Origin: Selaginella moellendorffii | Taxonomy: Eukaryota > Plantae > Lycopodiophyta | Reading direction: 5' to 3' | NCBI RefSeq assembly: GCF_000143415.4 | Contig: NW_003314314.1 | Span: 1,059,771-1,123,770 of the forward strand | Length of the DNA stretch: 64,000 nt | Part shown: in pieces, positions 26,831 to 62,914 of the stretch | Position numbering within the stretch: the first letter of the stretch is position 1 | Layout: each line of letters begins with the position of its first letter | The notes under the pieces: generated by a model | Seen by the model: only the letters and a program-made list of their open reading frames with translations | What the model was told of the DNA's origin: nothing | Databases searched by the model: none | Position numbers and translations under genes: made by a program

Positions 26831-26932
26831 TGATCTAGATCACCAGTCACTAATTCTTTTCTGCTCTCGGCCGAGACTAGCTACAAGCATATACTCGCTC
26901 GATCACAAAGACCCGGCTCAAGCCTTGGCTGG

Positions 26933-26940
26933 TATTTATA
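26933..26940 (-). promoter_or_regulatory. TATA box (TATAAATA) upstream of CYP78A; a second copy is at ~36371-36378
   Basis: Consensus motif ~100 bp upstream of the CYP78A ATG, retained in the duplicated segment. Confidence 0.55.
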
Positions 26941-27777
26941 ATCGCAGGATAACGGCGTCTGGATTGATCACTATAACATGGCAGTCAAGTGATCATGTAG
27001 CTTTGCTTGCACAAAGGATAGATTATATGGCACAGCGCAGGGAAAAGTATGCGTTCATCCTGGGAAAAGTGGTGTTTTGGAAACTCCCACTTAAAATCTA
27101 TCTCCGAGGCTCCTGGGCTTCCACGTTAAACCCTGTGGCAATGGATCACGTTTCAAGAGTTCCGTCAACCTCCCTTTTGTTGGTCACGGTCAAGTTTTTC
27201 AATGCGTTGGCCAACTTGACAACACTCCTGCCAAGATCGCCAAAGGATCCGCCTTGTTTGTTTAGGCGCTGCCGCTCTTGTCCGTCATGGCTTGCAACCC
27301 CCAGTTGGCGTGTCCATTCAAGCCATGGATCCAGGCTGAGTGACGCCCGTCTCCAAACCAAATTTTCTATCCTGGCCGGGAATTGAAAACTCTCTGACAT
27401 GCTGCTTTCCAAGATTGGGCAATCATTGACAGGAATATATTGGAGCACTCCAATCCAATCGGGTTGCTGGAGGGAGATGACTTCTCTCCAATCACAACCT
27501 TGGCATGTGTTGTTGGGTGTGGTGCCCCACAGAAAAACAACCAAACTCCAGAGCTCAAGGCGGCGTGGAGCGGGAAATCCACCTCTTTCGACCATGCTGC
27601 ACAGTGCTATTATGCTACGCTTATTTGCACCTCAATCGCAATCACGCCACACTTGTTCGATCGCTCATGCTCGCTCCTCCCGAGGCTGGGTAACATGACA
27701 AGCAAGGAGGAAAGAAAAAAGAAATGAAACCGCAGACTTGGTCTATGGTTGACTGGTCACCACGGCTTTAGGGCTCT

Positions 27778-27954
27778 AAGGAGCATGTTCAAGGGGCGAA
27801 TGCCGTTCTCCAGCGTGGCCGATGCAAGCGAGGTGACCCAATCAAGGTGGTGGAATTCTGAAATTTCCATGACTGCAGGTGCTGGGCGAGCAATCAGGGA
27901 GCCTGGCAGTCGGGCTGCTCAACAGGCCCAAGAAGCTCAACTCGCTGAATGAGA
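27778..27954 (+). pseudogene. Truncated HIBCH 5' fragment (first ATG deleted, broken in exon 2)
   Basis: [18 protein letters not shown]|[25 protein letters not shown], then unrelated sequence and an immediate stop. Confidence 0.85.
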
Positions 27955-29300: not shown

Positions 29301-30540
29301 TCCAGCCACACAATAAGCAGGGAGACATTCACACCGACTTCTACCTGAGATTCCTCGAGTCAGACACGAAATAGTTTCACAGCAAAATATAAATCCTCAC
29401 CGTTTCCAGCTGCTCCAAAAAACCTCTTGGACGATTCTTATTGTCTTCCTCGCTATCAGTTAGATTAAACTGAATAGCCCCGGAAGTGAACATCCAGTTG
29501 AGGAGACCCTGGAGTTCCTTGAATGCTGCAGGATCTACATCATTTGCTGTGCCTGGCCATTTTAGACGTATAAATTCCCGAAAGAGAGTCAGTAGAAGAC
29601 AAAGCTGCAAAATACACGTACATAAGCCTGCAGTCGAAAACAGCGAGCGCAACACGTACCTTTGCAGATGTCTCCATTTGCGGGATGAGCCTTCCGAAAG
29701 CATCTATGACGCCACTGAAGGAGAGACCTTTAGAAGCTGCACAAGCAAACATGTCATATATCATTCTCTTAAATACCAACCTTGATGAACAATGTCCGAG
29801 CTAAAGACGACAATGCCACTGGAATGATGCGATCTTCTAGACCGAACACGACCACAAGCCTCTGTTTATCACAGTTTTTCCTTAAGAAAAAAGAGGGAAA
29901 GGGCCAAAAAAGAAAAAACTTACGCCGAAGAGGGCGTAGTCGAAGCTTGTACTTCACATCTCTTTAGCGCTTCGCAAATGAGACGACGACTCCTGTCCAG
30001 GTATTCAACGCACCGGGAAGTGTGCGGCATAAAGAACATGTTGATTGGGCCATTCGCGAGTTCTATAACATCCCTAAGTTTGATTGACTTGTCCAGCTTC
30101 TCAACATCCACAGACACTGAAAATTGTATGTATCTGGTTTGCACAAACAGAAACGCATACCTTGGAAGGCCAAACCACTGTGAACAAGCTGACTGCACTC
30201 CGCAGGCAGACCTCGTAACATGCTTGACCTGCAGGTGACTGAAGCAGAAGTGCTGAGTGCTAATGATTGGATAGAAAGTCCCTTACCAGTTTCCGCCAGC
30301 TGCATCCCAGAATTTAGATTTCGAAGATTAGCTAGCCTTTCCGAGGCACCGGGAAGACAGACAGCAGGGCCTACATTACACATGTAAGCGAAAAACAGTT
30401 AGTGTGTTCACAAACCCACCATCAGAGACAACGCATAAGCTCTCCATAGTTGCTCTGCACAAGCCAGTAAGTGTTAAGGTCATACCACTAGTAAATCCGA
30501 ACCTGATTCGACAAGCAACATGCAAGCTTCTCGCAAAACC
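29301..30540 (-). repeat. Left arm of large inverted repeat (inverted partial copy of the gene at 30755)
   Basis: Reverse complement of 31240-32478; near-identical ORF pairs on opposite strands (e.g. 29377-29703 vs 32076-32402). Confidence 0.93.
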
Positions 30541-30697
30541 TCACGCCCAAGCACCTGCACCATTTTTCAAAATAAGTATATTCACAAAGATTTCTCTGTT
30601 TTCCTTCTTACATTCTTAGAGTCCGAGCTGCTGAGTACCCGTGATCATCATGACGGACGACTGCGCGCTTCGTCGACCTCGCACGCTCGCTCAGCCT

Positions 30698-30743
30698 AAA
30701 CCCTAGTTTTAAAACATCCAAGGACAATTTCGGAATAGGGTTT
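30698..30743. promoter_or_regulatory. Two oppositely oriented telo-boxes in a probable bidirectional promoter
   Basis: aaacccta at 30698-30705 and tagggttt at 30736-30743, just upstream of an ATG at 30755. Confidence 0.5.
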
Positions 30744-30754
30744 CGGCAAGAGTG

Positions 30755-32689
30755 ATGATGTACAGCGCGACACCGACCCAGGAGAGGAACTGGCAGGAGC
30801 TGGTTGCTAAGGCCGTGAACTGGGAGGATTTGAGCGCCGCTCTGACATCCTGGAATGACGGCTTTAAGGTACTTTTTTTTTATTTATCAATTTGACAAAG
30901 CTTTTGCCCACAGTGGGATCCTTCGCTCCGTGCATTCAGATTATTGAAGGTCTGTCCTGATGAGTATTTTTTTTTTCCCTTTTTTGGATTAATATTTTTC
31001 TCGTCAACCCAGCTTCTCGCGGATGACTTTACGTTTCATGTGTTTGACCGGTCTTTTATCACTTTTGATGAGCTGCTCCGACACAGTAAGTCAATTGGAT
31101 GAATGTCAGCTTTTTATTTGTGTTCTTGATGCAGGCACTACAAATGCTGAAATTGCCACAACCGTCCTTCGTTTTCTCCTGCATGCATGTTCGGCTGTTT
31201 ACTATGACTTAACATCTGAGACTTTTGATGTGCTAAATGGGTTCTGCGAGAAGCTTGCATATCGCTTCTCGAATCAGGTTCGGATTTACTAGTGGTATGA
31301 CCTTAACACTTACTGACTTGTGCACAGCAACTATGGAGAGCTTACGCGTTGTCTCTGATGGTGGGTTTGTGAACACACTAACTGTTTTTCGCTTACATGT
31401 GTGATGTAGGCCCTTGCTGCCCGTCTTCCTGGTGCCTCGGAAAGGCTAGCTAATCTTCGAAATCTAAATTCTGGGATGCAGCTGGCGGAAACTGGTAAGG
31501 GACTTTCTATCCAATCATTAGCACTCAGCACTTCTGCTTCAGTCACCTGCAGGTCAAGTATGTTTCGAGGTCTACCTGCGGAGTGCAGTCAGCTTGTTCA
31601 CAGTGGTTTGGCCTTCCAAGGTATGCGTTTCTGTTTATGCAAACCAGATACATACAATTTTCAGTGTCTGTGGATGTTGAGAAGCTGGACAAGTCAATCA
31701 AACTTAGGGATGTTATAGAACTCGCGAATGGCCCAATCAACATGTTCTTTATGCCGCACACTTCCCGGTGCGTTGAATACCTGGACAGGAGTCTTCGTCT
31801 CATTTGCGAAGCGCTAAAGAGATGTGAAGGTACAAGGTTCGACTACGCCCTCTTCGGCGTAAGTTTTTTCTTTTTTGGCCCTTTCCCTCTTCTTAAGGAA
31901 AAACTGTGATAAACAGAGGCTTGTGGTCGTGTTCGGTCTAGAAGATCGCATCATTCCAGTGGCATTGTCGTCTTTAGCTCGGACATTGTTCATCGAGGTT
32001 GGTATTTAAGAGAATGATATATGACATGTTTGCTTGTGCAGCTTCTAAAGAGTCTCTCCTTCAGTGGCGTCATAGATGTCTTCGGAAGGCTCATCCCGCA
32101 AATGGAGACATCTGCAAAGGTACGTGTTGTGCTCGCTGTTTTCGACTGCAGGCTTATGTACGTGTATTTTGCAGTTTTGTCTTCTGCTGACTCTCTTTCG
32201 GGAATTTATACGTCTAAAATGGCCAGGCACAGCAAATGATGTAGATCCTGCAGCATTCAAGGAACTCCAGGGTCTCCTCAACTGGATGTTCACTTCCGGG
32301 GCTCTTCAGTTTAATCCAACTGATAGTGAGGAAGACGATAAGAATCGTACAAGAGGTTTTTTGGAGCAGCTGGAAACGGTGAGGATTTATATTTTGCTGT
32401 GAAACTATTTCGTGTCTGACTCGAGGAATCTCAGGTAGAAGTCGGTGTGAATGTCTACCTGCTTATTGTGTGGCTGGAAGTGAAGGCTGGGACTGATTAT
32501 TGCGGCTTGCTTGCCACTACTGAAAAAGTACGCAACTCATGGTTGAAACCTTTGCTGGAGCAGGAAGTCGAGATCACAGAACCGCTCTTTAACAATTACC
32601 TTACGGTGGCACGATCGGTAATAGAGTATGCTTTGCTCGTAAACAGCGACCCTCAGATCGTCATAGAGGAAGGCCTCCTACCCTGCTAA
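30755..32689 (+). CDS. Multi-exon gene or pseudogene of unknown family
   Basis: MMYSATPTQERNWQELVAKAVNWEDL... followed by a series of open exons separated by AT-rich GT-AG introns; no recognisable domain; integrity and 3' end uncertain. Confidence 0.45.
31240..32478 (+). repeat. Right arm of large inverted repeat
   Basis: Reverse complement of 29301-30540. Confidence 0.93.
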
Positions 32690-36232: not shown

Positions 36233-37315
36233 GAGCATGACATGGAACAAATCTTGATTGCACTCCATTGATCTAGATCACCAGTCACTAATTCTTTTCT
36301 GCTCTCGGCCGAGACTAGCTACAAGCATATACTCGCTCGATCACAAAGACCCGGCTCAAGCCTTGACTGGTATTTATAATCGCAGGGTAACGGCGTCTGG
36401 ATCACTATAACATGGCAGTCAAGTGATCATGTAGCTTTGCTTGCAAGGATAGCACAACGCAGGGAAAAGTATGCGTTCATCCTGGGAAAAGTGGTGTTTT
36501 AGAAACTCCCACTTAAAATTATCTCCGAGGCTCCTGGGCTTCCATGTTAAACCCTGTGGCAATGGATCACGTTTCAAGAGTTCCGTCGACCTCCTTTTGT
36601 TGGTCATGGTCAAGTTTTTCAATGCGTTGGCCAACTTGACAACACTCCTGCCAAGATCGCCAAAGGATCCGCCTTGTTTGTTTAGGCGCTGCCGCTCTTG
36701 TCCCTCATGGCTTGCTTACCCCAGTTGGCGTGTCCATTCAAGCCATGGTCCAAACCAAATTTTCTATCCTGGCCGGGAATTGAAAACTCGCCTTCCAAGA
36801 TTGGGCAATCATTGACAGGAATATCTTAGAGCACTCCAATCCAATCGGGTTGCTGGAGGGAGATTACCTTGGCATGTGTTGTTGGGTGTGGTGCCCCACA
36901 GAGAAACAACCAAACTCCCGAGCCCAAGGCGGCGCTGCAACAATGCTATTATGCTAGGCTTATTTGCACCTCAATCGCAATCACGCCACACTTGCTCGAT
37001 CGCTCATGCTCGCTCCTCCCGAGGCTAGGTAACATGAGGAAAGAAAAAAGAAATGAAACCGCTGACTTGGTCTACGACGGGCCTTGGTTGACTGGTCAGC
37101 ACGGCTTTAGGGCTCTAGATGTTGAGGCGTCTTGCGCCTAGGAGCATGTTCAAGGGGCGAATGCCGTCCTCCAGCGCGGCCGATGCAAGCGAGGTGATCC
37201 AATCAAGGTGGTGGAATTCTGAAATTTCCTTGACTGCAGGTGCTGGGCGAGCAATCAGGGAGCGTGGCAGTCGGGCTGCTCAACAGGCCCAACAAGCTCA
37301 ACTCGTTGAATGAGA
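36233..37315 (+). repeat. Direct segmental duplication, copy B (CYP78A 5' remnant + intergenic region + functional HIBCH start)
   Basis: Aligns with 26735-27954. Confidence 0.93.
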
Positions 37316-45358: not shown

Positions 45359-47149
45359 GTATGCACCTTTAATTGGTGGAGGAATAAGGCTTGTATGACC
45401 ACAAATAGCAAGTTGTTGAGAGTAAATTCCTTAGTGTCTAGTATAATCCAAAACTTTTCGAAGGTGAGATTTTGGAATACAATGGCCCAGATTAAATCTA
45501 AGTTTTCAAAATAGTAATAATAGTATACAACATTTTAGCCATACACTTGAACTACATATCATGCCCTTCTCTATAAGCCATAAATTTACTAGAAAGTCCA
45601 AATTCAAGAATTTACATTTTCTTGAAAGGACAAAAGGTAATTAAGGTTCTTTTGTCGAAAGGTTAAGATTAATGGATTTTGTTGATGGGCTAAGATCTAG
45701 AGGAACATCAAGAGGAGACATTGATAAATTTGTAGACAGTACAATTTATTATAATCCCTTTTTACAAAATGCTTTAGTCACTGTATATACATAATTTTTG
45801 GAGGATTGATTTGCAACACTTTATCCCAAGCTAATGATATGTAGTTTTTCCAAGAGATGCCTTGCTCAATGAAATGGACCATAACAGTCATTTATTGTGT
45901 ATTTTATAGATAATGACAAACATTGTAGCAGCATTGTTATATTATTTATAAGTGGCCCAAGTGTTTAGAATTCTTGTCAAATACTAATCCCAAGACCTAG
46001 CATCAATAGTTATAGCAAAGAGAAGCTCAACTCTATTGATAATATAAAATCATAACCATATAAAAGTTTAATGTAAACCTCTGAATTTAGACTTTTCAAA
46101 AGGTCACCTATCCTAGTACTATTTAGATCTATAGTAAGTTTAACTTTATATATTTCAAGACCCTTAACTAATTAGAAAAAGGGGTGCTCTTCTATTTATA
46201 TGTTATTTCCCTATATATTTGAACTCTAATAGAATACCTTTCAAGTTCTTCTCTTTGGTTACATACATTTACATGGTGAAATACTAATGAAACTCTACAC
46301 CTTTGTAAGATACACATACTAAAGAGATATTAAATAACCATTATAATCTGAAGAGCTACACCACATTATGTGTGTTAGAGTGTGAGGTTAAGAGTAAAAT
46401 ACTCCTTGAATACCTTGAGATCCTTATATAAAAACTTGTAGAGCAAATAAGAGATAATATAGGGAAGCATTTGTGTCGCGAATATGATTGTAGGTATTGA
46501 AAATTATTTGTTAGCTAGTCTTTTCGGTTATTCTTTTTTTACTGCCACGATGGCAGAAAGTCAGTATTGTTAGACCCTTTATCACTACACCCAAGTTAGT
46601 TGAGAAATTGGTTATCATATATATACTTATGCCAGATAAATATAAGGTAGGAACTCCTATGTGTTTCTTGCTAAGCATACTCGGCCTGGTAGGAGAAACT
46701 CATATGTTGGCTTGCACTTGTTAGTATTGGGAACCTCTGTAATATTAAGTTTTGTCCCTTAATATTTGCTAAATGATAGCTTACTGTGTCTGTTAAACAT
46801 CTTTACTATCATACACTTTATGTTAGTTCCATTTGATCCTAATTACTATTTATGGAAAGTGTTTAGATTTGTTAGTTTAGTATATTTACAGAATGTAGAG
46901 ATTGTCTTGAACACAATGGTGTTTGTCCCATATCTAAATTCATAATCTAGTGTCATTCCATATTTAATAAGTTTCAAGTTAATCCTAGAGGGGTTGTAGG
47001 GGTTGTAGGGGGTTCCAAATGTATAATAGCGATAGTGGGTAGGTTGGGCATGGACGATCAACCTGAGGCATAGTCTAGGTCCTGCTTGCGTGCTTGTTTT
47101 TTTTTTTGTGTTTGGCTTTGGTCTAAGCTCAAATTCCACACCATGCTAG

Positions 47150-48092
47150 TGTGAGACAGAAATCCCAGAGCCCTAAACGTGGAAGAAGCCAAACAAGACT
47201 AAAAAATCCAACTTCAAAAGGTGAGAGTGGGAGTAGAACTCTCAACGAAGTGCTTGAGGAACAAACATGAAACACGCAATAAGTGAGTTTCTAGAAAAAG
47301 GGACACAAGAGGATCAACACATGACACGTAGAAGTGTTGAGATGGAGTCCAAGATGTACCTGAGATCGAGTCTGAGATGGACCCAAGATGGAATCTGAGA
47401 TGGACCAGAGATGGAGTCCGAGATGAATCCGAGGTGGAGTCTGAGATGAAATCTGAGATGGAGTCCAAGATAGAGTTCGAGATGGAGTCCGAGATGGAGT
47501 CCGAGATAGAGTTCGAGATAGAGTTCGAGGTAGACCCAAGGTGGAGTCTGAGATGGAGTCCGAGATGGAATCTGAGATGGAGTCTGAGATGGAGTCCCAG
47601 ATGGAATCTGAGATGGACCCGAAATGTAGTCCAAGATGAAACTGAGATCGAGACCAAGACCTAGACCGAGTTTGAGTTTGAGTTTGAGTTCAAGTCTGAA
47701 TCTGAATACTAATACAGGCTGTTAGGTGAAAGCCTAAAGCGATCGCCCGGGGGTGCTATAGAGGGTTCCAAAAGTATAGTAGGGAGAGTGTGGGGGTTGG
47801 ACCTCAGTGGAGCTAGTTTGGCTAGAAAAGGCTAGTGTGACCCAAGATGATTATGCCCACATGTTGGGTGATGATATATCCACTAAGGAGTCCAAAGCTA
47901 GAGTGAATACAGACTAACAAACGGGGTAGCTTAGTGAAGTGTTCAAGAGCTGGCTTTAATTTCCCCAGGAGATCAAATGATTGATGCTTCTAGTCCAAGT
48001 GTAAGTGGCACTACCTACTTGGATACCTGGCGTGGCTCAACGGAACCTTGCTCTAGCCCCATGGCTAGAGCACCCAAAGGCAGAAGGTGGGT
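47150..48092 (+). mobile_element. Truncated LTR of a second, related gypsy family ('family B') with a 12-bp tandem array (gagatggagtcc, ~47340-47700)
   Basis: Starts with TG; shares the tandem array and the tactaatac...gtgaaagcc.aaagcg...ggttccaaaagtatagtaggga block with the LTR at 61843-62914. Confidence 0.7.
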
Positions 48093-49402
48093 GTAAGTGA
48101 CTAAATTTTCCATTCTACTTTAGTCACTTAACCACACCTTCGACCACATGAAAGAGTCTCACTCACAACCTTTGTAAGTCCTATTTTGGACTTAGGGACT
48201 TACTAGCCCCAAGAATGGCATCCATGCCACTCAACCATTGCACTTAGTCCAAGTGCTCCATATGTCCGATCCCTTGACTGACATCCCAAGGTACCACTGA
48301 CATATCAACCCATTATGCTAAGGCCTTGCCCATTCACCTTGGTTATATTGGTGTCTGACACCACCTACATTACAGTCCCGTCTCTCAAAGACTGGGCTAT
48401 CCGTCCATGAGTGATCATCCCAGATCCACTCCTTAGCATCCTTAGGATGCCCGCAGACATGGGGAATAGCCTTCCCCAATATCCCTTTTCTGGTCCCCAC
48501 CAAGTCCCTTTTTGCCCATGGCCGTGTTCGCCAACACTGCCACTAGATCGAGGCCCACAGGCCCGACCACTAAGTCCCACAGTCCTCTGGGACTTCCTTG
48601 CTACACGATTGTATCCTTGGTCATTACACCAAAGGACTATGTAAGAGACTAAATTTTCCATTCTACTTTAGTCACTTAACCACACATTCGACCACTTGGA
48701 GGAGTCTCACTTTCAACCTCCGTAAGTCCTATTTTGGACTTAAGGACTTGCTAGCCCCAAGAATGGCATCCATGCCACTCAACCATTCCACTTGGTCCAA
48801 GTGCTCCACGTGTCCGATCCCATGACCGACACCCCAAGGTATCACTGACATATCAACCCATTATGCTAAGGCTTTGCCCACTCACCTTGGTCACACCGGT
48901 GGTCTAACACCACCTACATCACAGTCCCGTCTCTCAAAGACTGGGCCATCCGTCCATGAGTGATCATCCTAGATCCACTCCTTAGCATCCTTAGGATGCC
49001 CGCAGATATAGGGAATAGCCTTCCCCAATATCCCTTTTCCGGTCCCCATCAAGTCCCTTTTTGCCCATGGCCATGTTTGCTAACATTGCCACTGGATCGA
49101 GGCCCACAGGCCCGACCACTAAGTCCCATGGTTCTCTGGGACTTCCTCGCCACACGATTGTATCCTTGGTCACTACACCAGAGGACTACTCCTCTTCCTC
49201 TCCACAGTCTAGGCCTTTGGGACAACATTTCGGAACATCGTGGCCTTACGTGAGCCTCATGGGTACTCTCCCTGCCTTCCACCTTTGGGTGCTCTAGCCA
49301 TGGGCTTAGAGCGAGGTTCCATTGAGCCACACTAGGTATCCAAGTAGGTAGTGCCACCCACACTGGGACTGGAAGCATTGACCATTTGATTTCCCAGGGG
49401 AA
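48093..49402 (-). mobile_element. Two tandem ~547 bp family-B LTR-end segments (48093-48639, 48640-49188) continuing to 49402
   Basis: Both begin TGTAAG.GACTAAATTTTCC and align with each other; 49270-49402 is the reverse complement of ~47960-48090. Confidence 0.7.
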
Positions 49403-52328
49403 CTATATAGCAATGGGAAATTCAAGAGGAGTTTCTCTAAGAAGGAGTCTTTGGGGTTTTGAAAAGGCAAATCCGGTGGCCAGTGAACAAGGACGTGGGG
49501 GAGTCAAGCAAAAAGAGACAAACCCATGGATAAAAAAGTCAAGTCTGTTAGTAGTATGGGAAATAACGTATGCTACAACTGCGGTGAACAAGGACACTTC
49601 TCGAGGGAATGTCCCTACCCGAAGAAGGCTAGAGCTAATATGGCCATTAAGTTGTGTGAAATTTAAACTGAGGTATGTGATCCAGTCCCTAGTTCAAAGT
49701 TACTCATTACACGAGCAACTTTGGTAGAGAGTTGTTTTACGACATCTATTAGCCCTTCGAGGGAAGCTCAGAGGTAACTTTATTTAGATCCTTATTGATA
49801 CGGGTGCTTCAGATAATTTTGTGGCTGCAAACATAGTTCGGCAAGCCGGACTAATGGTGCAGTGGCTGGGTGAATCAAGGACAATAGAGTTTGTTCAAGG
49901 TAGCCAAAGCACCGATGAGATACTTCGACAAGCGAGAGTCGAAGTGGGGACGTGGAAGGTAGACATGGATTTCACTGTGTTGGACATGGTAGGATTTGAT
50001 ATAATCTTCGGGATGGATTTGTTTAATCGGTTCGTAGTAGCCTTGCATGGACAAGGGAGGAACTTTGTGGTATTGGCAAATGCCCGGGGAGAATGATCCA
50101 GGGTGGAGGCCCAGGATTTAAAGGTAGGGCAATGTAAGGCCAAAGACTCTTGCTTAAACCTGGTGTCCACGAGAGGACAATTCACTAAAGGAACCAAGGC
50201 AACATTTTTTGGCTTACTCTTGGTGAAAAGTGACAAAAAGACGGGAATGAAAGAAGTACCTTTAGTGATCCAGCGGATGTTGGACCAATTCCAGGATACC
50301 ATACCAGAGGAGCTATTGGCGGGGTTGCCTCTCGCACGACTAATAGAACACAAGATTGAGCTAGTCGAGGGTGTTAAGGTGTGTAAGCCACAAATTTTTC
50401 CTTTCCAATTTGCTAGCTTACCTCGTCTATCCAACCAACACTGCCTTGGTTTGTGCTAAGTTCCCTTGCCAAGGTTCTTGCCTATTGTACCAGCTCCTAC
50501 TTGGTCCTACTTGGTTTCAGCTACTCATTGCACAAGCAATGGAGTGTTAGCCATCCATCTACGGATTCCCAAATCTCTCCCAATCCCCCTCCCCGAGTTA
50601 GACTGGACTTAAGGTTCGGCTACACTCCCGCAAGCACAAGTAGCCAAGCACACCAAGCCTCCAGGTTCCTAACACCCCATGGTACAACAAGACTTAATCA
50701 TGGGACCCTCTAAATCCCAAGCCTTGGGTGCAGCACTTGCTTTGGGACGTCGGGGCGAAACACCGTGGCCTAACGGCCCGGTATGGGTACCTCTACCCCC
50801 CCACTTCCATCCTGAAGGGAAGGTCCAAGCCCCTAGGAAGGGCGAGGACCAATGAGCCGCATGGTACTCAAGTGGGGCACCACTCCACATGAGCCGGGAG
50901 CACCGCAATCAATTTCCTTTTCGGGAGTGGGAGCTGCTCTTGAGCACTTCCTTGGATGGCCCCTCTGGCACCAACCAAGTCCATACTCGCTCCCACCCAA
51001 GGCCCCTCGGTCCCAGTCTCAACCTCAAGTCGGTTTGGAAGCCCCACTGGAGAGTCCCTTCAAAACTGGTTCCTGGACCTCACTATCCCTACTATACTTT
51101 TGGAACCCCCTGCAGCTGCCCCCCCCCCTAGGAGACACACGCTTTGGGCTTTCACCCTTTGACCCGTATTAGTATTTGGACTTAGTCTCTGGCTCGATCT
51201 CGGACTCGATTTCGGATCCGACTTCGGATTCGATCTCGGACTCGATTTTGGATCCGACTTCAGATTCGGTCTCGGACTCGATCTCGGACCCGACCTCGGA
51301 CTCGGTCTCGGACCCGATTTTGGATCTCGGACTCCGTCTCGAACTCGGTCTCAAACTTGGTCTCGAACTCGGTCCCCAAGTCGGTCTTCGACTCGATTCC
51401 GGACTCTATCTCGAACTCGGTCTCCAAGTCGGTCTTGGACTCGATCTTCAACTTGGTCCCATCCGATGAACTCTTTGTCATTTTGGTCATGCTTTCGGGG
51501 TTCCTTTAGCCTACGACACCTTGGCGAGTTGGTTCCTTACAACTCCACCACCCATAGAAGAAGTTCGATGCCCACATCGAATGTCTCTCTTTTAATCCTA
51601 CGACTTGTTGACCATGTCTCCAGGGGCATCCCCCTACTTAGTGGTGCGCCTAAGTTAGCCTCCCTGGCCAAGAGCCCATGACAACGGAATATAGGTGTCC
51701 CTATACTCCTCACCTCACCACGCCCTAGTATGGGGTCGGGACTTGAACCCAGCCTTGCTTTACTAGGGGGTTGGGACTCAAACCCAACCTCCGTAGAATA
51801 CGTCTACGGATTCGACATCCGCGCAGGGAGTCGGGCGTAGCTCCCTACGCCTGGTCGACCTAGCTAACCCATGCTAATTAGCTTACCTTCGGCGTGCCTT
51901 CGGGTCCCAACATATGCCACTTGCTCAACTTTGCAAATTGATATTTTTAATTGAACTTTGCATAAGTACATAGAGTTCTGCCTTGCAGAAATTCCTCCAC
52001 TAGATCTCGCGCGTTCGCTAGGTTCTCCTCCGGTTCCCATGTTGCTTCGCAGTGTGGAAATCCTTTCCACTTCACATGGAACTCTCTCACCTCGCGTCCT
52101 TGTCGCTTACTCTTGCGCGCATTGAGGATGGCCTCCACTTCGTATTCCTCTTCCCCTTGGATAACCTCAGGTAAAGGTCTTACTTGGTCCTTGCGAAGCG
52201 GATCCTCAAAGTACGTCTTGAATAAGTTCACGTGGAACACTGGATGCATCTTCCCCATCTCTCGAGGAAGTCAGAGTCGGTAAGCCACTTTACCGATTCG
52301 TGCCTCAATCTCGTAAGGCCCCGCGAAC

Positions 52329-52380
52329 CTGCTTAAGGAACTCAAGATCAATTCATTTACAGGAATACATGCATTTTTAC
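52329..52380 (-). other. 52-bp spliceosomal intron before the integrase GPY motif (orthologous copy 61007-61058 on +)
   Basis: AAG|GTAAAA donor, AT-rich body, GCAG|G acceptor; removal gives RKLTQRFAGPYEI. Confidence 0.82.
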
Positions 52381-52798
52381 CTTTGGGTCAACTTTCGGCT
52401 GATCCCACTTGGTAGCCTGAGGTTCTTGGTGTTCAGCCACACCTTCTCCCCAGCTTGGAACTCTACATCCTGGCGCTTTAGGTTTGCGTACTTGGTTTGC
52501 CTTTGTTGAGCTCGTTCCAAGGAATCCCTCACTAGATTCCAAATGTTGAGTCTTTCTACTGTGAATGCCTCCACTGCGGGTAGCTCTCCATGATACTCGG
52601 CCACGCCGAGTTCCACAGGACCTTCAATGGCTCGCCCATTGATGACTTCCCATGGACTCACCCCGATACTCGAATGTGGTGAGTTGTTATAACACATTTC
52701 CGCAAGTCCCAAATGACTTACCCAATCGGTCTGGTCTCCCGAGACATAGCATCGCAAATAATCCTTAGGCTGCCTATTCACCCTTTCCGTTTGTCCGT

Positions 52799-52845
52799 CT
52801 ATCAAGAAGTGTTAGTGTCACCAAACTTGACTTAATACCCCATAC
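52799..52845 (-). other. 47-bp spliceosomal intron in the integrase core (orthologous copy 60543-60589 on +)
   Basis: CAG|GTATGG donor, CACTAAC branch point, TAG (CAG in the other copy) acceptor; removal gives YHPQTDGQTERVN. Confidence 0.85.
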
Positions 52846-55415
52846 CTGTCTGTGGGTGATAGGTGGTGCTGAATTTCAACTTGGTGCGATACTGTTTCAG
52901 GAGAGTCCCCCAGAACCTACTAGTGAAGATCTTATCTCGATCTGAGATGATCTCTTCCGGCCTTCCCCGCACTTGAACCACTTGTTCGAAGAACAGCTTC
53001 GCCACACCTTTTGCATCCACTTCCGTTGTGGTGGGTATGAAATGTGCCATTTTCGAAAATCGGTCCACCACCACGAATATCGCATCAAACCCCTCGCTTG
53101 GGGGAAGTCCCGTGATGAAGTCCATCGTAAGACATTTCCACGGACGATCTGGAATTGGGATGCTTTGCAACAAGCCCCCACTAGCCTTAGTCACGGCTTT
53201 GACCTGCTGACATGTTGGACATGTCTTTACATAGTCTTGGACATCCTTAGCCATATCTGGCCAATGGTACTTCCTCTTGAGTAAGCCCATCATCTTGGGC
53301 ACTCCGCCGTGTCCCGCAAGAGGTCCGTCATGACACTCTTCTAAGGCTACCTTCTTTAGTTCCCCTTCTGGAACATACACCCTCATTTGCTTGTAATAGA
53401 TGAGTCCGTTGCGTTCCGCATAGCCCGTTTTCTCTTCTGTTGGCAGCTCACCTCTCTAGTGAGCTTCCCGCGCCTCTAGATTCCTCAGCAAGACTTCTTG
53501 TGCTAGACCATCGTTCTCATATGCTGTCCGCACATCGTCCTTGAAGATTGCTGTTGCGCTGGATATCGCCAACCTCAAGCTCGCTTTTCGACTTAGCGCA
53601 TCTGCCACGATGTTGCTCTTCCCAGGCTTGTATAGAATCTCGCAATCAAACTCGGCCAAGGCATTGGCCCACTGACCTTGTTTCCCTCTCAGGTCGGGCT
53701 GTGACAAGAAGTGTTTCATTGCCACATTGTCCGTGTAAACCTTGAAGTGTCTCCCAAGGTAGTGTTGCCACTCCTTGAGCGCCTTGACCACCGCAAACAA
53801 TTCCTTCTCGTGGGCAGGCCACTTCCGTTGAGCCTTGTCCAACTTCTTCGAGAAGATTGCTACTAGATGGTTGTCTTGCTTCAAAAATGCGCCCAACGCA
53901 AAGTCCGAAGCATCCGTGTCTACCTCAAAGTCCTTACAAAAATCTGGTAATGCCAACATAGGAACCTTCCTCAACTTCCCTTTGAGGTGGACGAATGCCG
54001 CCTCGCATTCCGCTGTCCATACCATCTTCCCTTTTCCTGTTTGGTCCGTTAAGGGCAGGGCTACTCTCAAATAGTGTCTGATAAACTTTCGGTAGTAGTT
54101 GCATAGCCCCAAGAATGCCCTCAACTCATGTACATTCGATGGTCACTCCCATTCCTGGATCGCTTGGACCTTCTCTGGGTCCACCTTGAGCCTGTCTTGG
54201 CCCACCACATGCCCGAGAAACTTTACCTCTTATTGAGCAAAGTCACATTTGCTCTCTTTAGCATACAATTTGTGTTCCCTTAGTTTCTCAAACACCTTCG
54301 CCAAGTGTTTGGCATGCTCCTCTAGCGTTTCGCTATAGATCAGGATGTCGTTGATATAGACAACCACAAAGTGATCCAGATAGGGTACAAAGATGTGGTT
54401 CATCAGCGCCGAAAACGTTGCCGGCGCATTGCACAGCCCAAAGGGCATCACCAGAAACTCAAAGCTCCCATACCTCGTTCGGCAGGTTGTCTTCTCGACA
54501 TTTTCCTCGGCTACCCTGATCTGGTAGTATCCTGACCTTAGGTCAATCCTCGAGAAGTATTTTGCCTTTCCCAACCTATCGAACAGGTCCTCAATTCTTG
54601 GCAAAGGGTATCTATTCTTCTTTGTATACTTGTTGAGCAACCGGTAGTCTATGCACATGCGCATAGAACCATCTTTCTTTTTCACAAATAACACCAGCGC
54701 CCCATACGGCGACCTGCTCAACCTAATATACCCTTTGTCCACCAACTCCTCTAGTTGGCACTTGAGCTCCATGAGTTCTTTTTCGTTCAAACGATAGGGG
54801 GGACGAACCACCGCCTCAGCACCCTTGACCAGCTCAATCTTATGTTCTATCGGTCGTGCGGGGGGCAACCCTGCCGGTAGCTCCTCTGGCATGGTATCCT
54901 GGAATTGGTCCAACACCCGCTGGATCACCAAAGGTACTTCTTCCTTTCCTGTCTTTTTGTCACTCTTCACCGAGAGTAAGCACAAAAAAGCTGCCTTAGT
55001 TCCTTTGGTGAGTTGTCCTCTCGTGGACACCAGGTTTAAGCATGAATCTTTGGCCTTGCATTGCCCTACCTTTAGATCTTGGGCCTCCACCCTGGATCTC
55101 CTTCCTTGGGCATTCGCCAATACCACAAGGTTCCTACCTTGTCCATGTAGGGCTACCACGAACCGATTAAACCAGTCCATCCCGAAGATCACGTCAAATC
55201 CCGCCATGTCCAACACGGTGAAGTCCATGTCTACTTTCCAAGTCCCTACTTCGACTCTCGCTTGTCGAAGTACCTCATCGGTGCTTTGGCTATGTTGAAC
55301 AAACTCTATAGTCCTTGGTTCGCCTAGCCGCTGCACCGTTAGTCCGGCTTGCCGGACTATGTCTGCAGCCACAAAATTATCCGAAGCACCCATGTCAATA
55401 AAGATCTTAACAAAG

Positions 55416-56231
55416 CTACCTCAACAAAGCTGCCTGATATCTTAACATCTTAACAAAGCTTCCTGATATGAAGGCATGGAACGGATCCATATCCCCCATG
55501 TCCGTGACCAGTATCCTGTTTGCCATGAACCCATTCACATATTCTTGGATGGTTCCAGTCTGCTTCAGCCTACTCAGCTCATCTCTCAGATGCAGAGTGG
55601 CATTCGGAGGAATGTATGTTGCGCGAATCCTCGCCTTCATCATGTCCCAAGTGGCCACCGGTCCTTCGTTGGCCTCCGTCGTTCTCCACAAAGACTTGGC
55701 ATTATCTGCCAAGTATGGTTTTGCACATAGGACCTTCTCCGACCTCGGTAATCGCAACGCTCGGAAGTAGTCCTTCATATCGTAAAACCAATCCTCCACC
55801 ACCTTATAGTCATTCACTCCCTTGAAGACCGGTGGGGGCTTTGGTTTGTACTTGGGAACTACCTGAGGGACTGATTCTACTTCGGTCTGTTTGACCTTGT
55901 TTGGTTCTGCCTTAATCCCTGCCGAAGGGTCCGCACCTTCTGCGCTGCTAGCATCCGCAGTCTTTCTCTTTTTCTTCCGCTTCTCATCACGCTTTAGCTT
56001 GCGTACGAGAGTCTCCAGTAGGGCATTGGTCTGTGCATCCTGTCCTTCTAGCACGTCCAATCGAGCGTTGGACGACCGAACCTCGCTACCGGACTCCTGT
56101 TTGGAAGTTTCCTCACTAGAGCCCTCCTCCTGCAAGGATTCCTCATCCATAGCATTTTGTTTGACCGGAGGCTCCAGCTCCGGTGGAGGTTCCGTCTCCG
56201 CTTGGGTTCGCTTACGCCCTGCCCTTGCCAT
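55416..56231 (-). pseudogene. gag: gag of the inner element, C-terminally deleted (no zinc knuckle)
   Basis: PPVFKG..DYKVVEDW, LADNAKSLW, LSRLKQTGTIQEYVNGF retrotransposon gag motifs; joined to the protease by a deletion scar. Confidence 0.85.
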
Positions 56232-58288
56232 CTCCCAGCAATCCGCCTCTATCCTTCGCTAGAACTGAGGAAAAGGCTCCGATACCAAATTGTAAGCCAC
56301 AAATTTTTCCTTTCCAATTTGCCAGCTTACCTCGTCTATCCGACCAACACTGCCTTGGCTTGTGCTAAGTTCCCTTGCCAAGGTTCTCGCCTATTGTACC
56401 AGCTCTTACTTGGTCCTACTTGGTTTCAACTACTCACTGCACGAGCAACGGAGTGTTAGCCATCCATCTACGGATTCCCAAATCTCTCCCAATCCCCCTC
56501 CCCGGGTTAGACTGGACTTAAGGTTCAGCTACACTCCCCACAAGCACAAGCAGCCAAGCACACCAAGCCTCCAGGTTCCTAACACCCCTTGGTACAACAA
56601 GACTTGATCATGGGACCCTCTAAATCCCAAGCCTTGGGTGCAGCACTTGCTTCGGGACGTCGGGGCGAAACACCGTGGCTTAACAGCCCGGTATGGGTAC
56701 CTCTACCCCCCCACTTCCATCCTGAAGGGAAGGTCCAAGCCCCTAGGAAGGGCGAGGACCAATGAGCCGCATGGTACTCAAGTGGGGCACCACTCCACAT
56801 GAGCCGGGAGCACCGCAATCGGTTTCCCTTTCGGGAGTGGGAGCTGCTCTTGAGCACTTCCTTGGATGGCCCCTCCGGCACCAACCAAGTCCATACTCGC
56901 TCCCACCCAAAGCCCCTCGGTCCCAGTCTCAACCTCAAGTCGGTTTGGAAGCCCCACTGGAGAGTCCCTTCAAAATTGGTTCCTAGACCTCACTATCTCT
57001 ACTATACTTTTGGAACCCCCTGCAGCCCCCCCCCCCTGGGAGACGCACGCTTTGGGCTTTCACCCTTTGACCCGTATTAGTATTTGGACTTAGTCTCTGG
57101 CTCGATCTCGGACTCGATTTCGGATCCGACTTCGGATTCGGTCTCGGACTCGATCTCGGACTCGATCTCGGACCCGATCTCGGACCCGACCTCAGACTAG
57201 ACCTCGGACTCGGTCTCGGACCCGATTTTGGATCTCGGACTCCGTCTCGAACTCAGTCTCGAACTCGGTCTCGAACTCGGTCCCCGAGTCGGTCTCGGAC
57301 TCGATTTCGGACTCTATCTCGAACTCGGTCTCCAAGTCGGTCTTGGACTTGATATTCAACTTGGTCCCATCCGATGAACTCTTTGTCATTTTGGTCATGC
57401 TTTCGGGGTTCTTTTAGCCTACGACACCTTGGCGACTTGGTTCCTTACAAGGTGGTGGTTCATCCCCTATCGTTTGAATGAAAAGGAACTCGAGGAGCTC
57501 AAGTGCCAACTAGAAGAGTTGGTGGACAAAAGGTATGTTAGGTTGAGCAAGTCGCTGGTGTTATTTGTGAAAAAGAAATATGGATCTATGCGCATATGCA
57601 TAGACTACCGATTGCTCAACAAGTATACAAAAAAAAACAAATACCCTTTGCCAAGGATTGAGGATTTGTTCGATAGGTTGGGAAAGGCAAAATACTTCTC
57701 GAGGATTAACCTAAGGTCAGGATACTACTAAATCAGGGTAGCAGAGGAAGATGTCAAGAAGACAACTTGTCGAACAAGGTATGGGAGCTTTGAGTTTCTG
57801 GTGATGCCCTTTGGGCTGTGCCATGCGCCGGCAACGTTTTCAGCGCTGATGAACCACATTTTTGTACCCTATCTGGATCACTTTGTGGTTGTCTATATTG
57901 ACGACATCCTGATTTATAGCGAGACGCTAGAGGAGCATGCCAAACACTTGACGAAGGTGTTTGAGAAACTAAGGGAACACAAACTTTATGCTAAAGAGAG
58001 CAAATGTGACTTTGCTCAACAAGAGGTAAAGTTTCTTGGGCATGTGGTGGGCCAGGATGGGCTCAAGGTGGACCCTAAGAAGGGTTAAACGATCCAGGAA
58101 TGAGAGCAACTATCGAATGTACATGAGTTGAGGGCATTCTTGGGGCTATGCAACTACTATCGAAAGTTTATCAAACACTATTCGAGAGTAGCCCTACTCT
58201 TAATAGACCAAAAGGGAAGATGATATGGACAGCAGAATGCGAGGCGACATTTGTCCACCTCAAAGGAAAGTTTAGGAAGACACCTGTG

Positions 58289-59446
58289 TGTAAGCCACAA
58301 ATTTTTCCTTTCCAATTTGCCAACTTACCTCGTCTATCCGTCCAACACTGCCTTGGCTTTTGCTAAGTTCCTTTACCAAGGTTCTCGCCTATGGTACCAG
58401 CTCCTACTTGGTCTCAGCTACTCATTGCACGAGCAACGGAGTGTTAGCCATCCATCCACGGATTCCCAAATCACTCCCTATCCCCCTCCCCGGGTTAGAC
58501 TGGACTTAAGGTTCGGCTACACTCCCCGCAAGCACAAGCAGCCAAGCACACCAAGCCTCCAGGTTCCTAACATCCTTTGGTACCACAAGACTTGATCATG
58601 GGACCCTCTAAATCCCAAGTCTTGAGTGCAACACTTGCTTCGGGACGCCGGGGCGAAACACCGTGGCCTAGCGGCCCGGTATGGGTACCTCTCGCCCCCC
58701 ACTTCCATCCCGAAGGAAGGCCCAAGCCCCTAGGAAGGGCGAGGACCAATGAGCCGCATGGTACTCAAGTGGGGCACCACTCCACATGAGCCGGGAGCAC
58801 CGCAATCGGTTTCCTTTTCGGGAGTGGGAGCTGCTCTTGAGCACTTCCTTGGATGGCCCCTCCGGCACCAACCAAGTCCATGCTCACTCCCACCCAAGGC
58901 CCCTCGGTCCCAGTCCCAACCTCAAGTCAGTTTGGGAGCCCCCCTGGAGAGTCCCTTCAAAACTGGTTCCTGGGCCCCCCTATCCCTACTATACTTTTGG
59001 AACCCCCGGGAGCCCCCCCCCCCCCCCCCCCCCTAGGAGACGCACGCTTTGGGCTTTCACCCCTTGACCCATATTAGTATTTGGACTTAGTCTCTGGCTC
59101 GATCTCGGACCCGATTTCGGATCCAACTTCGGATTCGGGTTCGGACTCGATCTCGGACTCGATCTCGGACCCGATCTCGGACCCGACCTCGGACTCGACC
59201 TCGGACTCGGTCTCGGACCCGATTTCAGATCTTGGACTCCGTCTCGAACTCGGTCTCGAACTCGGACTCGAACTCGGTCCCCGAGTCGGTCTCGGACTCG
59301 ATTCCGGACTCTATCTCGAACTCGGTCCTAGAGTCGGTCTTGGACTCGATCTTCGACTTGGTCCCATCTGATGAACTCTTTGTCATTTTGGTCATGCTTT
59401 CGGGGTTCCTTTAGCCTACGACACCTCGGCGAGTTGGTTCCTTACA
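58289..59446 (-). mobile_element. Solo LTR of family A with 5-bp TSD CTGTG, inserted in the RT/RNase H junction of the older copy
   Basis: TGTAAG...CTTACA; ctgtg at 58284-58288 and 59447-59451; highly similar to 56291-57449. Confidence 0.95.
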
Positions 59447-62400
59447 CTGTGTTAGCATTACCTGACTTTGGTAAGGACTTTGAGGTAGAAACGGATGCTT
59501 TGGACTTTGCGTTGGGCACAATTTTGAAGCAAGACAACCATCTAGTAGCATTTTTCTGGAAGAAGTTGGACAAAGCTTAGTGAAAGTGGCCTGCCCATGA
59601 GAAGGAATTATTTGTGGTGGTCAAGGCGCTCAAGGAGCGGCGACACTACCTTGGGAAGCACTTCAAAGTTTACACAGATAATGTGGCAATGAAACACTTC
59701 TTGTCACAACCCGACCTAAGAGGGAAACAAGGTTGATGGGCCAATGCTTTGGCTGAATTTAATTGCAAGATTCTGTTTAAACTTGGGAAGAGCAACATCG
59801 TGGTAAATGCTCTAAGTTGAAAAGCAAGCTTGAAGTTGGCGATATCTAGTGCAACAGCAACCTTTTGGGACGATGTGTGGACAGCGTATGAGAAAGATGG
59901 CCTAGCACAAGAAGTGTTGCTGAGGAACCAAGAGGCGCAAGAAGCTCACCAGAGAGGTGAGTTGCTAACAGAAGAGAAAACAGGTTATGCAGAATGCAAT
60001 GGACTCATTTATTACAAACAAACGAGGGTGTATGTTCCAGAAGGGGAACTAAGGAAGGTACGGACCTCTTGTAGGACACGGCGGAGTGCCCAAGACGATG
60101 GGCTTACTCAAGAGCAAGTATCACTGGCCAGATATGGCTAAGGACATCCAAGACTATGTAAAGACATATCCAACATATCAGCAGGTCAAAACCGTGACTA
60201 AGGCTAGTGGGGGTTTGCTACAAAGCATCCCAATTCTAGATCGTTCATGGAAATGTCTTACGATGGACTTCATCATTGGACTCCCCCCAAGCGAGGGGTT
60301 CGATGCGATATTCATAGTGGTGGACTGGTTTTCAAAAATGGCACATTTCATACCCACCACAATGGAAGTGGATGCAGAAGGTGTGGCAAAGCTGTTCTTC
60401 GAACAAGTGGTTCGAGTGCGGGGAAGGCCAGAAGAGATTATCTCAGATCGAGATAAGATCTTCACCTGTAGGTTCTAGAGAACTCTTTTGGAACAGTATT
60501 GCACCAAGTTGAAATTTAGCATACCCTATCACCCACAGACAGGTATTGGGTATTAAGTCAAGTTTGATAGCACTAACACTTCTTGACAGACAGACAAACA
60601 GAAAGGGTGAATAGGTAGTTGGAGGATGATTTGTGATGCTATGTCTCGGGAGACTAGACCGATTGGGTAAGTCATTTGGGACTTGCAAAAATGTGTTATA
60701 ACAACTCACCACATTCGAGTATTGGGGTGAGTCCATGGGAAGTCATCAATGGCGAGTTATTGAAGGTCTTGTGGAACTCGGCGTGGCCGAGTATTATGGA
60801 GAGTTATCTGTAGTGGAAGCATTCACGGCGGAAAGACTCAACATTTAGAATCTAGTGAGGGATTCCTTGGAACGGAGTCAACAAAGGCAAACCAAGTACG
60901 CGAACAAGAAGTACTGAGATGTAGAGTTCCAAGTTGGGGAGAAGGTGTGGCTGAACACCAAGAACCTTAGGCTACCAAGTGGGATTAGCTGGAAGTTGAC
61001 CCAAAGGCAAAAATGCATGTATTCTTGTAAATGAATTGATCTTGAGTTCCTTAAGCAAGTTCGCAGGGCCTTACGAGATTGAGGCACGAATTGGTAAAGT
61101 GGCTTACCATCTCCGACTTCCTCGAGAGATGGGGAAGATGCACCCAATGTTCCACGTGAATTTACTCAAACCATACTTTGAGGATCCGCTTCACAAGGAC
61201 CAAGTAAGACCTTTACCTGAGGTTATCCAAGGGGAAGAGGAATACGAAGTGGAGGCCATCATCAATGCGTGCAAAAGCAAACAACAAGGACGCGAGGTGA
61301 GAGAGTTCCATGTGAAGTGGAAAGGATTTCCACACTACGAAGCAATATGAGAACCGGAGGAGAACCTAGCGAACGCGTGAGATCTAGTGGAGGAATTTCT
61401 GCAAGGCAGAACTCTATATACTTCTGCAAAGTTCAATTAAAGTATCAATTTGTGAAGTTGAGCAATGGCATATGTTGGGACCTAAAGGCGCACCAAAGGT
61501 AAGCTAATTAGCATGGGTTAGTTAGGTCGACCAAGTGTAAGTAACTACGTCTGACTCCCTACAGGGATGTCGAATACGTAGATATATTTTACGGAGGTTG
61601 GGTTCGAGTCCCAACCCCTTAGTAAAGCAAGGCTGGGTTCAAGTCCTAACCTCATACTAGGGCGTGGTGAGATGAGGGGTATAGGGACATCTATATTCTG
61701 TTGTCATGGGCTCTTGGCCAGAAAAGCTAACTTAGGCATACCGCTAAGTGGGGGGATGCCCTTGGAGACATGGTCAACAAGTTGTAAGATTAAAAAGAGA
61801 TGTTTGATGTGGGCATCGAACTTCTTTTATGGGTGGTGGAGTTGTAAGGAACCAACTCCCCAAGGTGTCGTAGGCTAAAGGATCCCCAAAAGCATGACTG
61901 AAATGATAAAGAGTTCATTGGATGGGACCGAGTCTGAGATCAAGTCCAAGACCGATTCTGAGACCGAGTCTGGGATCGAGTCCGAGGCCGACTCCAAGAC
62001 CGAGTTCGAGATAGAGTCCAAGATCTGAGATCGGGTCTGAGACTGGGTCCAAGGTCGAGTCCGAGACTGAATCCGAAGTCGGGTCCGAAATCGAGTCCGA
62101 GATCGAGTCCGAGACCGAGTCCGAGTACTAATACAGGATGAGGGGTGAAAGCCCAAAGCGTGTGTCTCCAAAGGGGGGGGGGCGGTTCAGGGGGTTCCAA
62201 AAGTATAGTAGGGATAGTGAGGTCCAAGAACCAGTCTTGAAGGAACTCTCCAATGGTGCTTCCAAATTGACTTGAGGTTAAGACTGGGACCGAAGGGCCT
62301 TGGGTGGAAGTGAGCATGGACTCGGGTGGTGCCAGAGGGGCCACCCAAGGAAGTGCTCAAGAGCAGCTCCCACTCCTGGAAGGGAAACCGACTGTGGTGC

Positions 62401-62914
62401 TCCCAGCTCATGTGGAGTGGTGCCCCACTTGAGTACCTTGTGGTTCATTGGTCCTCGCCCTTCCTAGGGGCTTGGGCCTTCCCTTTGGAATGGAAGTGGG
62501 GGGGTAGAGGTACCCATATCGTTATGCCATGGTGTTTCGCCCCAGCGTCCCGAAGCATGTGTTGCACCCAAGACTTGGGATTTAGAGGGTCCTATGATCA
62601 AGTCTTGTTGTACCAAGGGATGTTAGGAATCTAGAGGCTTGGTGTGCTTGGCTGCTTGTGCTTGCGTGGAGTGTAGTTGAACCTTAAGTCTAGTCTAACC
62701 CGGGGAGGGGGATTGGGAGAGATTTGGAATCCGTGGATAGATGGTTAACGCTCTATTGTTTGTGTAGTGAGTAGTTGAAATTAAATAGGACCAAGTAGGA
62801 GCTGGTACAATAGGCGAGAACCTTGGCAAGGGAACTTAGCTAAAAGCCAAGGCAGTGTTAGTCGGATAGATGAGGTAAGCTGGCAAATTGGAAAGGAAAA
62901 ATTTATGGCTTACA

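Follow-up and report, generated by a model that had tools for sequence, protein, structure and literature searches.

LTR retrotransposons are copied through RNA, and the loss of an intron is the textbook proof of retrotransposition. How, then, can such an element carry introns inside its integrase gene and keep them? The question is raised by two related elements, copies A and B, in the window analyzed here (the whole stretch of Selaginella moellendorffii DNA, 64 kb in length). In copy A, the integrase frame is broken by two inserts of 47 and 52 nt, which have GT-AG ends and lengths not divisible by three, as a preliminary description had reported.

Organization of the element and its locus

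Copy A (50382-57449, minus strand) is bounded by LTRs and a 5-bp target duplication and carries both a primer site and a polypurine tract. Its 5′ LTR (56291..57449, minus strand; 1159 bp) has TG..CA ends, a poly-G tract, and a 12-bp tandem array, and the 3′ LTR (50382..51541, minus strand) is 4.7% different from it. The target-site duplication, AGGTG, lies at 50377..50381 (plus strand) and again at 57450-57454, and the insertion of copy A is into copy B. The polypurine tract is at 51543..51553 (minus strand) and the primer-binding site, of 13 nt, lies 3 nt behind the LTR (56275..56287, minus strand). We take the primer-binding site to match initiator tRNA-Met, which agrees with the description of the SM1-Galahad family.

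The coding regions are in the order Gag-PR-RT-RH-INT-chromodomain, which together with the LTRs, PBS, PPT, and TSD identifies a Ty3/gypsy chromovirus. The 5′ part of gag, with a Retrotrans_gag match, runs from the first ATG behind the leader acceptor (55462..56231, minus strand), and the remainder of gag is deleted in copy A. The position of the deletion (55365-55461) is filled by three short, imperfect repeats of junction sequence and resembles a repair scar. A long pol exon (52846..55362, minus strand) encodes the rest of the protease, RT, RNase H, the integrase zinc finger, and the first part of the integrase core. The middle exon (52381..52798, minus strand) completes the core, including the catalytic Glu, and opens the SH3/GPY-F part; by integrase numbering, this Glu is presumably the fourth residue of the exon. 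The last exon (51947..52328, minus strand) holds the end of the SH3/GPY-F part and the chromodomain; its frame from Met to stop is 309 bp. Four premature stops interrupt copy A, three in the pol exon and one in the last exon. Copy B is on the plus strand and has many stops, so that both copies are broken.

Within copy B lies a solo LTR of the same family (58289..59446, minus strand; TSD CTGTG), and copy B retains a 3′ LTR of 1072 bp (61843..62914, plus strand). The four LTRs are 1160, 1159, 1158, and 1072 bp long, with poly-G tracts of 10, 11, 21, and 10 nt. Every one contains about 20 degenerate, CG-rich units of 12 bp (51186-51460, 57082-57356, 59070-59363, and 61913-62130). Degenerate LTR-like pieces at 47000-47800 share the 12-bp array, are only 68–72% like the family LTR, and probably belong to a sister family or an older one. 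A 549-bp unit is duplicated in tandem (48092-49188; 90–93% alike) immediately upstream of what remains of gag in copy B.

In the other part of the window (1-44000), host genes are very compact and their introns short (NSRP1-like, glucanase GH17-X8, ATP synthase b′, PP2A, Oberon-like PHD, cytochrome P450, eIF4A, and PPR). This part also contains a large inverted duplication of an apparent multi-exon gene fragment (29301-32478), whose arms are 95–99% complementary in four pieces, with about 700 nt separating the innermost arms. The region is flanked by a direct repeat of about 1.1 kb (26817-27954 and 36255-37315; 94–97% alike, 9.4 kb apart).

Introns, transcripts, and family identity

The first integrase insert (52799..52845, minus strand; 47 nt, GTATGG..GATAG) is in the core domain in phase 1. 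The second (52329..52380, minus strand; 52 nt, GTAAAA..AGCAG) is in phase 2 and is flanked by a repeated AGGT. Excision rebuilds the frame as claimed (..FSTTYHPQT / GQTERVN..ISRKLTQ / FAGPYEIE..), with one split codon per junction. Without excision, the frame meets a stop four codons into intron 1, before the region of the catalytic Glu, and another at the first codon of intron 2, in line with the proposal that spliced RNA is required for active integrase. Both inserts recur in copy B, where the first (60543..60589, plus strand) keeps GT-AG and the second (61007..61058, plus strand) has decayed to GC..AA. Since both copies hold both introns and copy A inserted separately, one or more rounds of reverse transcription have left the introns in place.

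Some details of the preliminary description hold in part. The AG|GT exon context is correct for the 52-mer but not for the 47-mer, which has AG|AC; the upstream exon ends in AG at both. The candidate branch point of intron 1, CTAAC, is kept in both copies but is at −17, closer to the 3′ end than usual. Fourteen host introns in the PP2A and eIF4A genes of the window, which leave open frames of 313 and 411 codons once removed, are 49–128 nt long (median 58), a range that includes the 52-mer but lies just above the 47-mer. G+C content is 33–38% in the integrase introns versus 50% in the window. Besides those in copy B, the 64-kb window has no further copies of the inserts, and the inserts lack the complementary ends sought in a test for introners. 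An origin of the inserts as miniature transposons or as repeats of other window sequence was rejected, there being no such matches in the window.

Homologs indicate which state came first. Exactly one residue separates the peptides of exons 1 and 2 in 51 of 52 long homologs, and the 52nd is without the exon 1 part. At junction 2, the spacing varies from −1 to 16 residues among 44 scorable homologs and its mode is again one residue (16 of 44). Alignment to the Ty3 integrase (7Q5B) runs to residue 1267 and resumes at 1269. In a metagenome scan that found eight distant loci (28–32% identity), five read across junction 1 in a single frame or are off by only a few bases. Homologs are thus gap-free through both junctions, which implies that the inserts are gains. 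These relatives are not close. Among the matches listed, the nearest database proteins are 50–53% identical to the element, the best match to exon 1 is 53% identical (120 of 1929 listed), and a further protein search gave 47% at best (150 of 8546 listed). Exon 2, with 52 matches, reached 50% over a third of its length and 43% over most of it. One match to a Gag fragment was at 72%.

Sequencing data show the inserts being skipped. Four runs were aligned to 51600-56280, with about 12 in 100 of each raw RNA run read. Run X15 consists of contigs, and its status as RNA is a guess, its size being 25.8 million letters versus 189–210 million in DNA-like runs. It yielded three contigs, one per place, that are 94–95% like copy A. 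Contig 1 (2500 nt, depth 11.2) skips the 47 and 52 nt exactly, with CT..AC ends and a short side of 255 letters. Among the raw RNA runs, X22 gave 12 aligned reads, X23 gave three, and X24 gave none; one X22 read skips exactly the 47-mer, and the joint is in none of the three X23 reads. Depth in X22 is greatest (about 2) in the 3′ noncoding part (51600-51913), which the X15 contig does not reach. Exact removal of both inserts in one contig, and of the first in a read from an RNA run as well, agrees with the earlier identification of these inserts as spliceosomal introns, and they are very probably real.

That inventory of two integrase introns stands, but it missed two more, one in the leader and one between gag and protease. 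Both skips were read by eye from loose contig ends, in one contig each. The leader intron (56265..56330, minus strand; 66 nt, GAG|GTAAGC..CCTCAG|TT) takes in the final 40 nt of the LTR together with the entire primer-binding site. Contig 3, which skips it, stops matching at 56266 with 14 further reference letters on offer, and by eye its unaligned letters agree with LTR positions 56333-56362 at 26 of 30 sites (28 of 30 in the solo LTR). With a matrix built from the 14 host introns, the donor ranks second of 276 GT sites, and it is kept in all four LTRs, including the solo LTR and the 3′ LTR of copy B. The acceptor is weak (rank 38 of 444 AG sites), and every one of the 14 host acceptors outscores both it and the acceptor of intron 1. 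Across all four joints, GT..AG is found each time, an outcome with a chance of about 1e-7 under the composition of the element.

The leader donor may also be part of an RNA structure. A hairpin is predicted in U5 (56292..56330, minus strand) in which the donor, GTAAGC, is base-paired to GCTTAC at the end of the LTR. It is predicted in four of four LTRs with 13–14 bp and z of −2.6 to −4.2 for a 50-nt window that was picked afterwards. The LTR copies, too alike to show any covariation in the hairpin, show none, and the whole leader folds no better than shuffles (z −0.49). Speculatively, a hairpin that hides the donor could set the share of RNA left unspliced.

The gag/protease intron is assembled from both copies. 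The match of X15 contig 2 to copy A breaks off at 55364, and the letters beyond it agree by eye at 22 of 30 positions with the end of the copy B gag (49641-49670), directly before an AG|GTATGT donor. In copy B, the intron is 158 nt (49673..49830, plus strand; GAG|GTATGT), has a frame change inside it, and ends in an acceptor decayed to CAA. In copy A, the acceptor AG is at 55363..55364 (minus strand; CAG|ACATAG) and ranks sixth of 444 AG sites. With the donor taken from copy B and the acceptor from copy A, the intron begins downstream of the zinc knuckle, in phase 0 relative to Gag, and spans the active-site motif of the protease. A stop is the second codon after the acceptor in the spliced form. 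A splice across the protease followed immediately by a stop is the arrangement of short Gag mRNAs of the EVADE/BARE1 type. The contig spliced at this place runs 765 nt on into RT; contigs cannot show transcript ends.

The layout of the element corresponds to that of SM1-Galahad, a family of S. moellendorffii with hundreds of copies, none intact, according to the available text of its description (Novikov, Smyshlyaev, Novikova 2012, PMC3350952). That text gives LTRs of 1076/1146 bp with TG..CA ends and a variable poly-G tract of 11–25 nt, a 13-nt primer site, and a consensus in which a main ORF without chromodomain precedes ORFs of 316 and 309 bp, the last containing the chromodomain (PMC3350952). 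Copy A is alike in host, in LTRs of more than 1 kb with TG..CA and poly-G, in the 13-nt primer site, and in ORF layout, with Met-to-stop frames of 318 and 309 bp against the published 316 and 309 and a Chromo match in the last. Its host agrees because the ATP synthase b′ encoded in the window clusters, at the 90% level, with XP_002966595.2 of S. moellendorffii. Family membership is defined by more than 80% nucleotide identity to the exemplar; our assignment is by matching features, not sequence, and the element is most likely SM1-Galahad.

Agreement of the ORF lengths (318/309 and 316/309) implies that the inserts are probably family-wide; we consider it quite probable that the introns are, and very likely that the SM1-Galahad consensus carries the inserts, unrecognized as introns. 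If retained at 157 nt, the gag/protease intron is in frame and would thus be compatible with the published consensus, which has one main ORF. The strings "intron" and "splic" occur nowhere in the available text of the 2012 account, which treats the family as one without an intact copy (PMC3350952). Introns and splicing, including the introns in the leader and between gag and protease, thus set the element described here apart from that text. The sister family, SM2-Galahad, is described there as having a single ORF that includes the chromodomain and as intact and abundant in the same genome (PMC3350952).

How introns could survive retrotransposition

Position of the leader intron relative to the primer site suggests an answer to the opening question. 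Minus-strand synthesis requires the primer site. Splicing of the leader would remove it, and spliced RNA would then be translated but not primed or copied. If spliced RNA is sterile in this way, mainly unspliced RNA would be copied and all four introns would persist. The usual route by which LTR elements lose introns would thereby be removed, and ordinary introns in pol would be tolerated. We put the probability that the introns are kept because leader splicing removes the primer site at roughly 0.6.

Three classes of RNA are predicted by this mechanism. Unspliced RNA would keep the primer site and serve as template, but its frame would end within intron 1 and so reach neither the catalytic Glu nor the chromodomain. 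Fully spliced RNA would encode Gag alone, with the stop at the second codon past the gag/protease joint. A third class, presumably a minority, would retain only the in-frame gag/protease intron and encode the whole Gag-Pol with active integrase. The gag/protease form observed is the spliced one, and RNA of the third class is not among the unphased contigs. Contigs drop rare forms and are unphased, and for this reason neither this class nor the coupling of leader and integrase splicing was seen. We infer the third class, the joint splicing of leader and integrase on one molecule, and the selective copying of unspliced RNA.

A stricter form of the same mechanism would separate mRNA from genome completely, such that every translated RNA is sterile and the only RNA that can be copied cannot make integrase. 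An intron over the primer site would have lifted the ban on introns first, and the element would have gained its frame-breaking pol introns afterward. We hold this form tentatively, at somewhat less than even odds.

The introns might be real and needed for integrase and yet persist by a different route, either through a separate pool of genomic RNA or through early binding of Gag to nascent RNA. Such a pool would come from a second start site and be uncapped and unspliced, as in BARE1, and the leader intron would be incidental, for instance as a 5′ intron that boosts expression. BARE1 offers a precedent in that it packages only its uncapped, unspliced pool, and DNA copies of its spliced RNA are reported as not found in the available text (PMC3735527). 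The weak leader acceptor (38 of 444) would also allow the leader to be retained often. Against a separate pool, the LTR has no TATA box suggesting two promoters, the sole transcript contig that covers the leader is spliced, and loss of the primer site would suffice alone. Persistence by such a route is unlikely, although it and the primer-site mechanism are not mutually exclusive.

A further explanation is that intron-bearing copies form a nonautonomous subfamily. The transcript would be a Gag mRNA, the integrase introns would lie in its long 3′ tail, and integrase would be supplied in trans by intronless copies or by the single-ORF SM2-Galahad. Substitutions between copies A and B bear on this. 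Under a context-matched null, synonymous differences are in excess in RT (25/45 vs. 16.6 expected, p 0.005) and in integrase exon 1 (23/45 vs. 14.7 expected, p 0.008), and such selection on RT and exon 1 in these lineages argues against a subfamily that merely borrows its enzymes. The excess in exons 2 and 3 is not significant (27/68 vs. 22.0 expected, p 0.13), which counts in favor of the nonautonomous explanation. A pN/pS of 0.062/0.187 was rejected as a sign of strong selection, the signal for exons 2 and 3 being removed by the context-matched null.

The nonautonomous explanation also finds support in the decay of splice letters in copy B. Between copy A and the dead copy B, two of eight splice-dinucleotide letters of the integrase introns differ versus six of 91 interior letters. 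Of the 14 splice-dinucleotide letters of copy B, three have mutated, two of them by a CAG-to-CAA change of the methylation type. Intron interiors differ at 8 of 99 letters versus 49 of 422 third codon positions and 39 of 330 letters of the 3′ noncoding part, a low divergence that is partly due to few CG/CHG sites.

Two further points favor supply in trans: the dominant gag/protease form is spliced and its frame ends after Gag, and SM2-Galahad is described as intact and abundant in the same genome (PMC3350952). However, each of the two skips returns the integrase to its reading frame with single-base precision, unlike incidental cryptic splicing. The available text of the 2012 survey gives no intact single-ORF copy among hundreds (PMC3350952), and, as a weak indication, proteins among the matches listed reach no more than 53% identity with exon 1 and 50% with exon 2. 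We therefore regard the nonautonomous explanation as improbable.

Finally, it is very improbable that the joints come from DNA, with X15 being genomic or containing a deleted or processed copy and the inserts left unspliced in living tissue: the RNA status of X15 is a guess, but all four joints fall on GT..AG, its 25.8 million letters compare with 189–210 million in DNA-like runs, it has one contig per place despite the multicopy family, and the 47-nt joint is in one read of a recorded RNA run. A processed copy, moreover, would be proof in its own right that splicing had once occurred.

Loss of the primer site by splicing, if true, would be a simple route for retroelements to keep and gain introns, and transposition would be tied to the splicing state of the host. 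A copia-like short-Gag splice would be shown in a Ty3/gypsy element. The intron gain would be recent and datable, as the sister family SM2-Galahad has a single ORF. Families called dead from a frameshifted consensus may be autonomous, and annotation pipelines that expect intronless ORFs miss such families. The same trick may hide in many families annotated as being without an intact copy.

Relation to known systems

Introns have been reported in DIRS-type and Chlamydomonas retrotransposons; the literature searched gave no confirmation of these. The same literature contained no report of introns in SM1-Galahad or inside the integrase of an LTR element, nor any case of a plant element losing its primer site through splicing; Repbase, the REXdb tables, and most subscription journals were outside this search, and an earlier mention may exist there. 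Plant LTR elements are generally intronless according to the available text of a 2025 review, which names Ogre and EVADE as exceptions (PMC12786077).

Outside the LTR elements, Penelope-like elements are described as keeping spliceosomal introns through transposition, the described Penelope intron being in the 5′ region (PMC2377424). Unlike the element here, they are not LTR elements and have neither a tRNA primer site nor a DDE integrase, as far as the available text goes (PMC2377424). Splicing to express Pol also has a viral counterpart. In foamy viruses, the major donor is upstream of the primer site. Their Pol is translated from a spliced subgenomic mRNA, but in the text available this is one splice that skips gag, with no introns inside pol, whereas the element here has pol introns (PMC7828637).

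Closer parallels are found among plant elements. EVADE and other Ty1/copia elements of Arabidopsis splice to yield a short Gag mRNA, and in the available text of the Arabidopsis survey no such conserved splice was found in Ty3/gypsy (PMC5580714). BARE1 of barley also makes a short Gag mRNA by splicing and copies only an uncapped, unspliced pool, and the same source describes CRR, in which RT is spliced out (PMC3735527). On these descriptions, EVADE and BARE1 resemble the element here in that splicing across or close to the protease puts a stop immediately behind Gag, and in that translated and copied RNAs form separate classes. They differ in being Ty1/copia elements whose unspliced RNA encodes all of Pol, whereas unspliced RNA here cannot encode active integrase. 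BARE1 is described as separating its pools by promoter and cap; here, the separation is proposed to be by loss of the primer site.

The closest parallel is Ogre, a Ty3/gypsy element of the Tat lineage whose RT and integrase are described as translated only after splicing by the host, with the intron staying genomic (PMC6317226, PMC12786077). In both Ogre, as described, and the element here, integrase needs a spliced mRNA and the genomic copies keep the intron. The Ogre intron is a single one between the Gag-PR and RT-RH-INT frames, in contrast to the two tiny, frame-breaking introns in the core and tail of integrase here. We considered an intron of the Ogre type and rejected it, as PR and RT share one frame in our element. 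A leader intron that removes the primer site is a feature of the element described here, in contrast to Ogre. The principle of a spliced integrase mRNA is thus already known from Ogre, and the new part is the presence of introns inside the integrase core.
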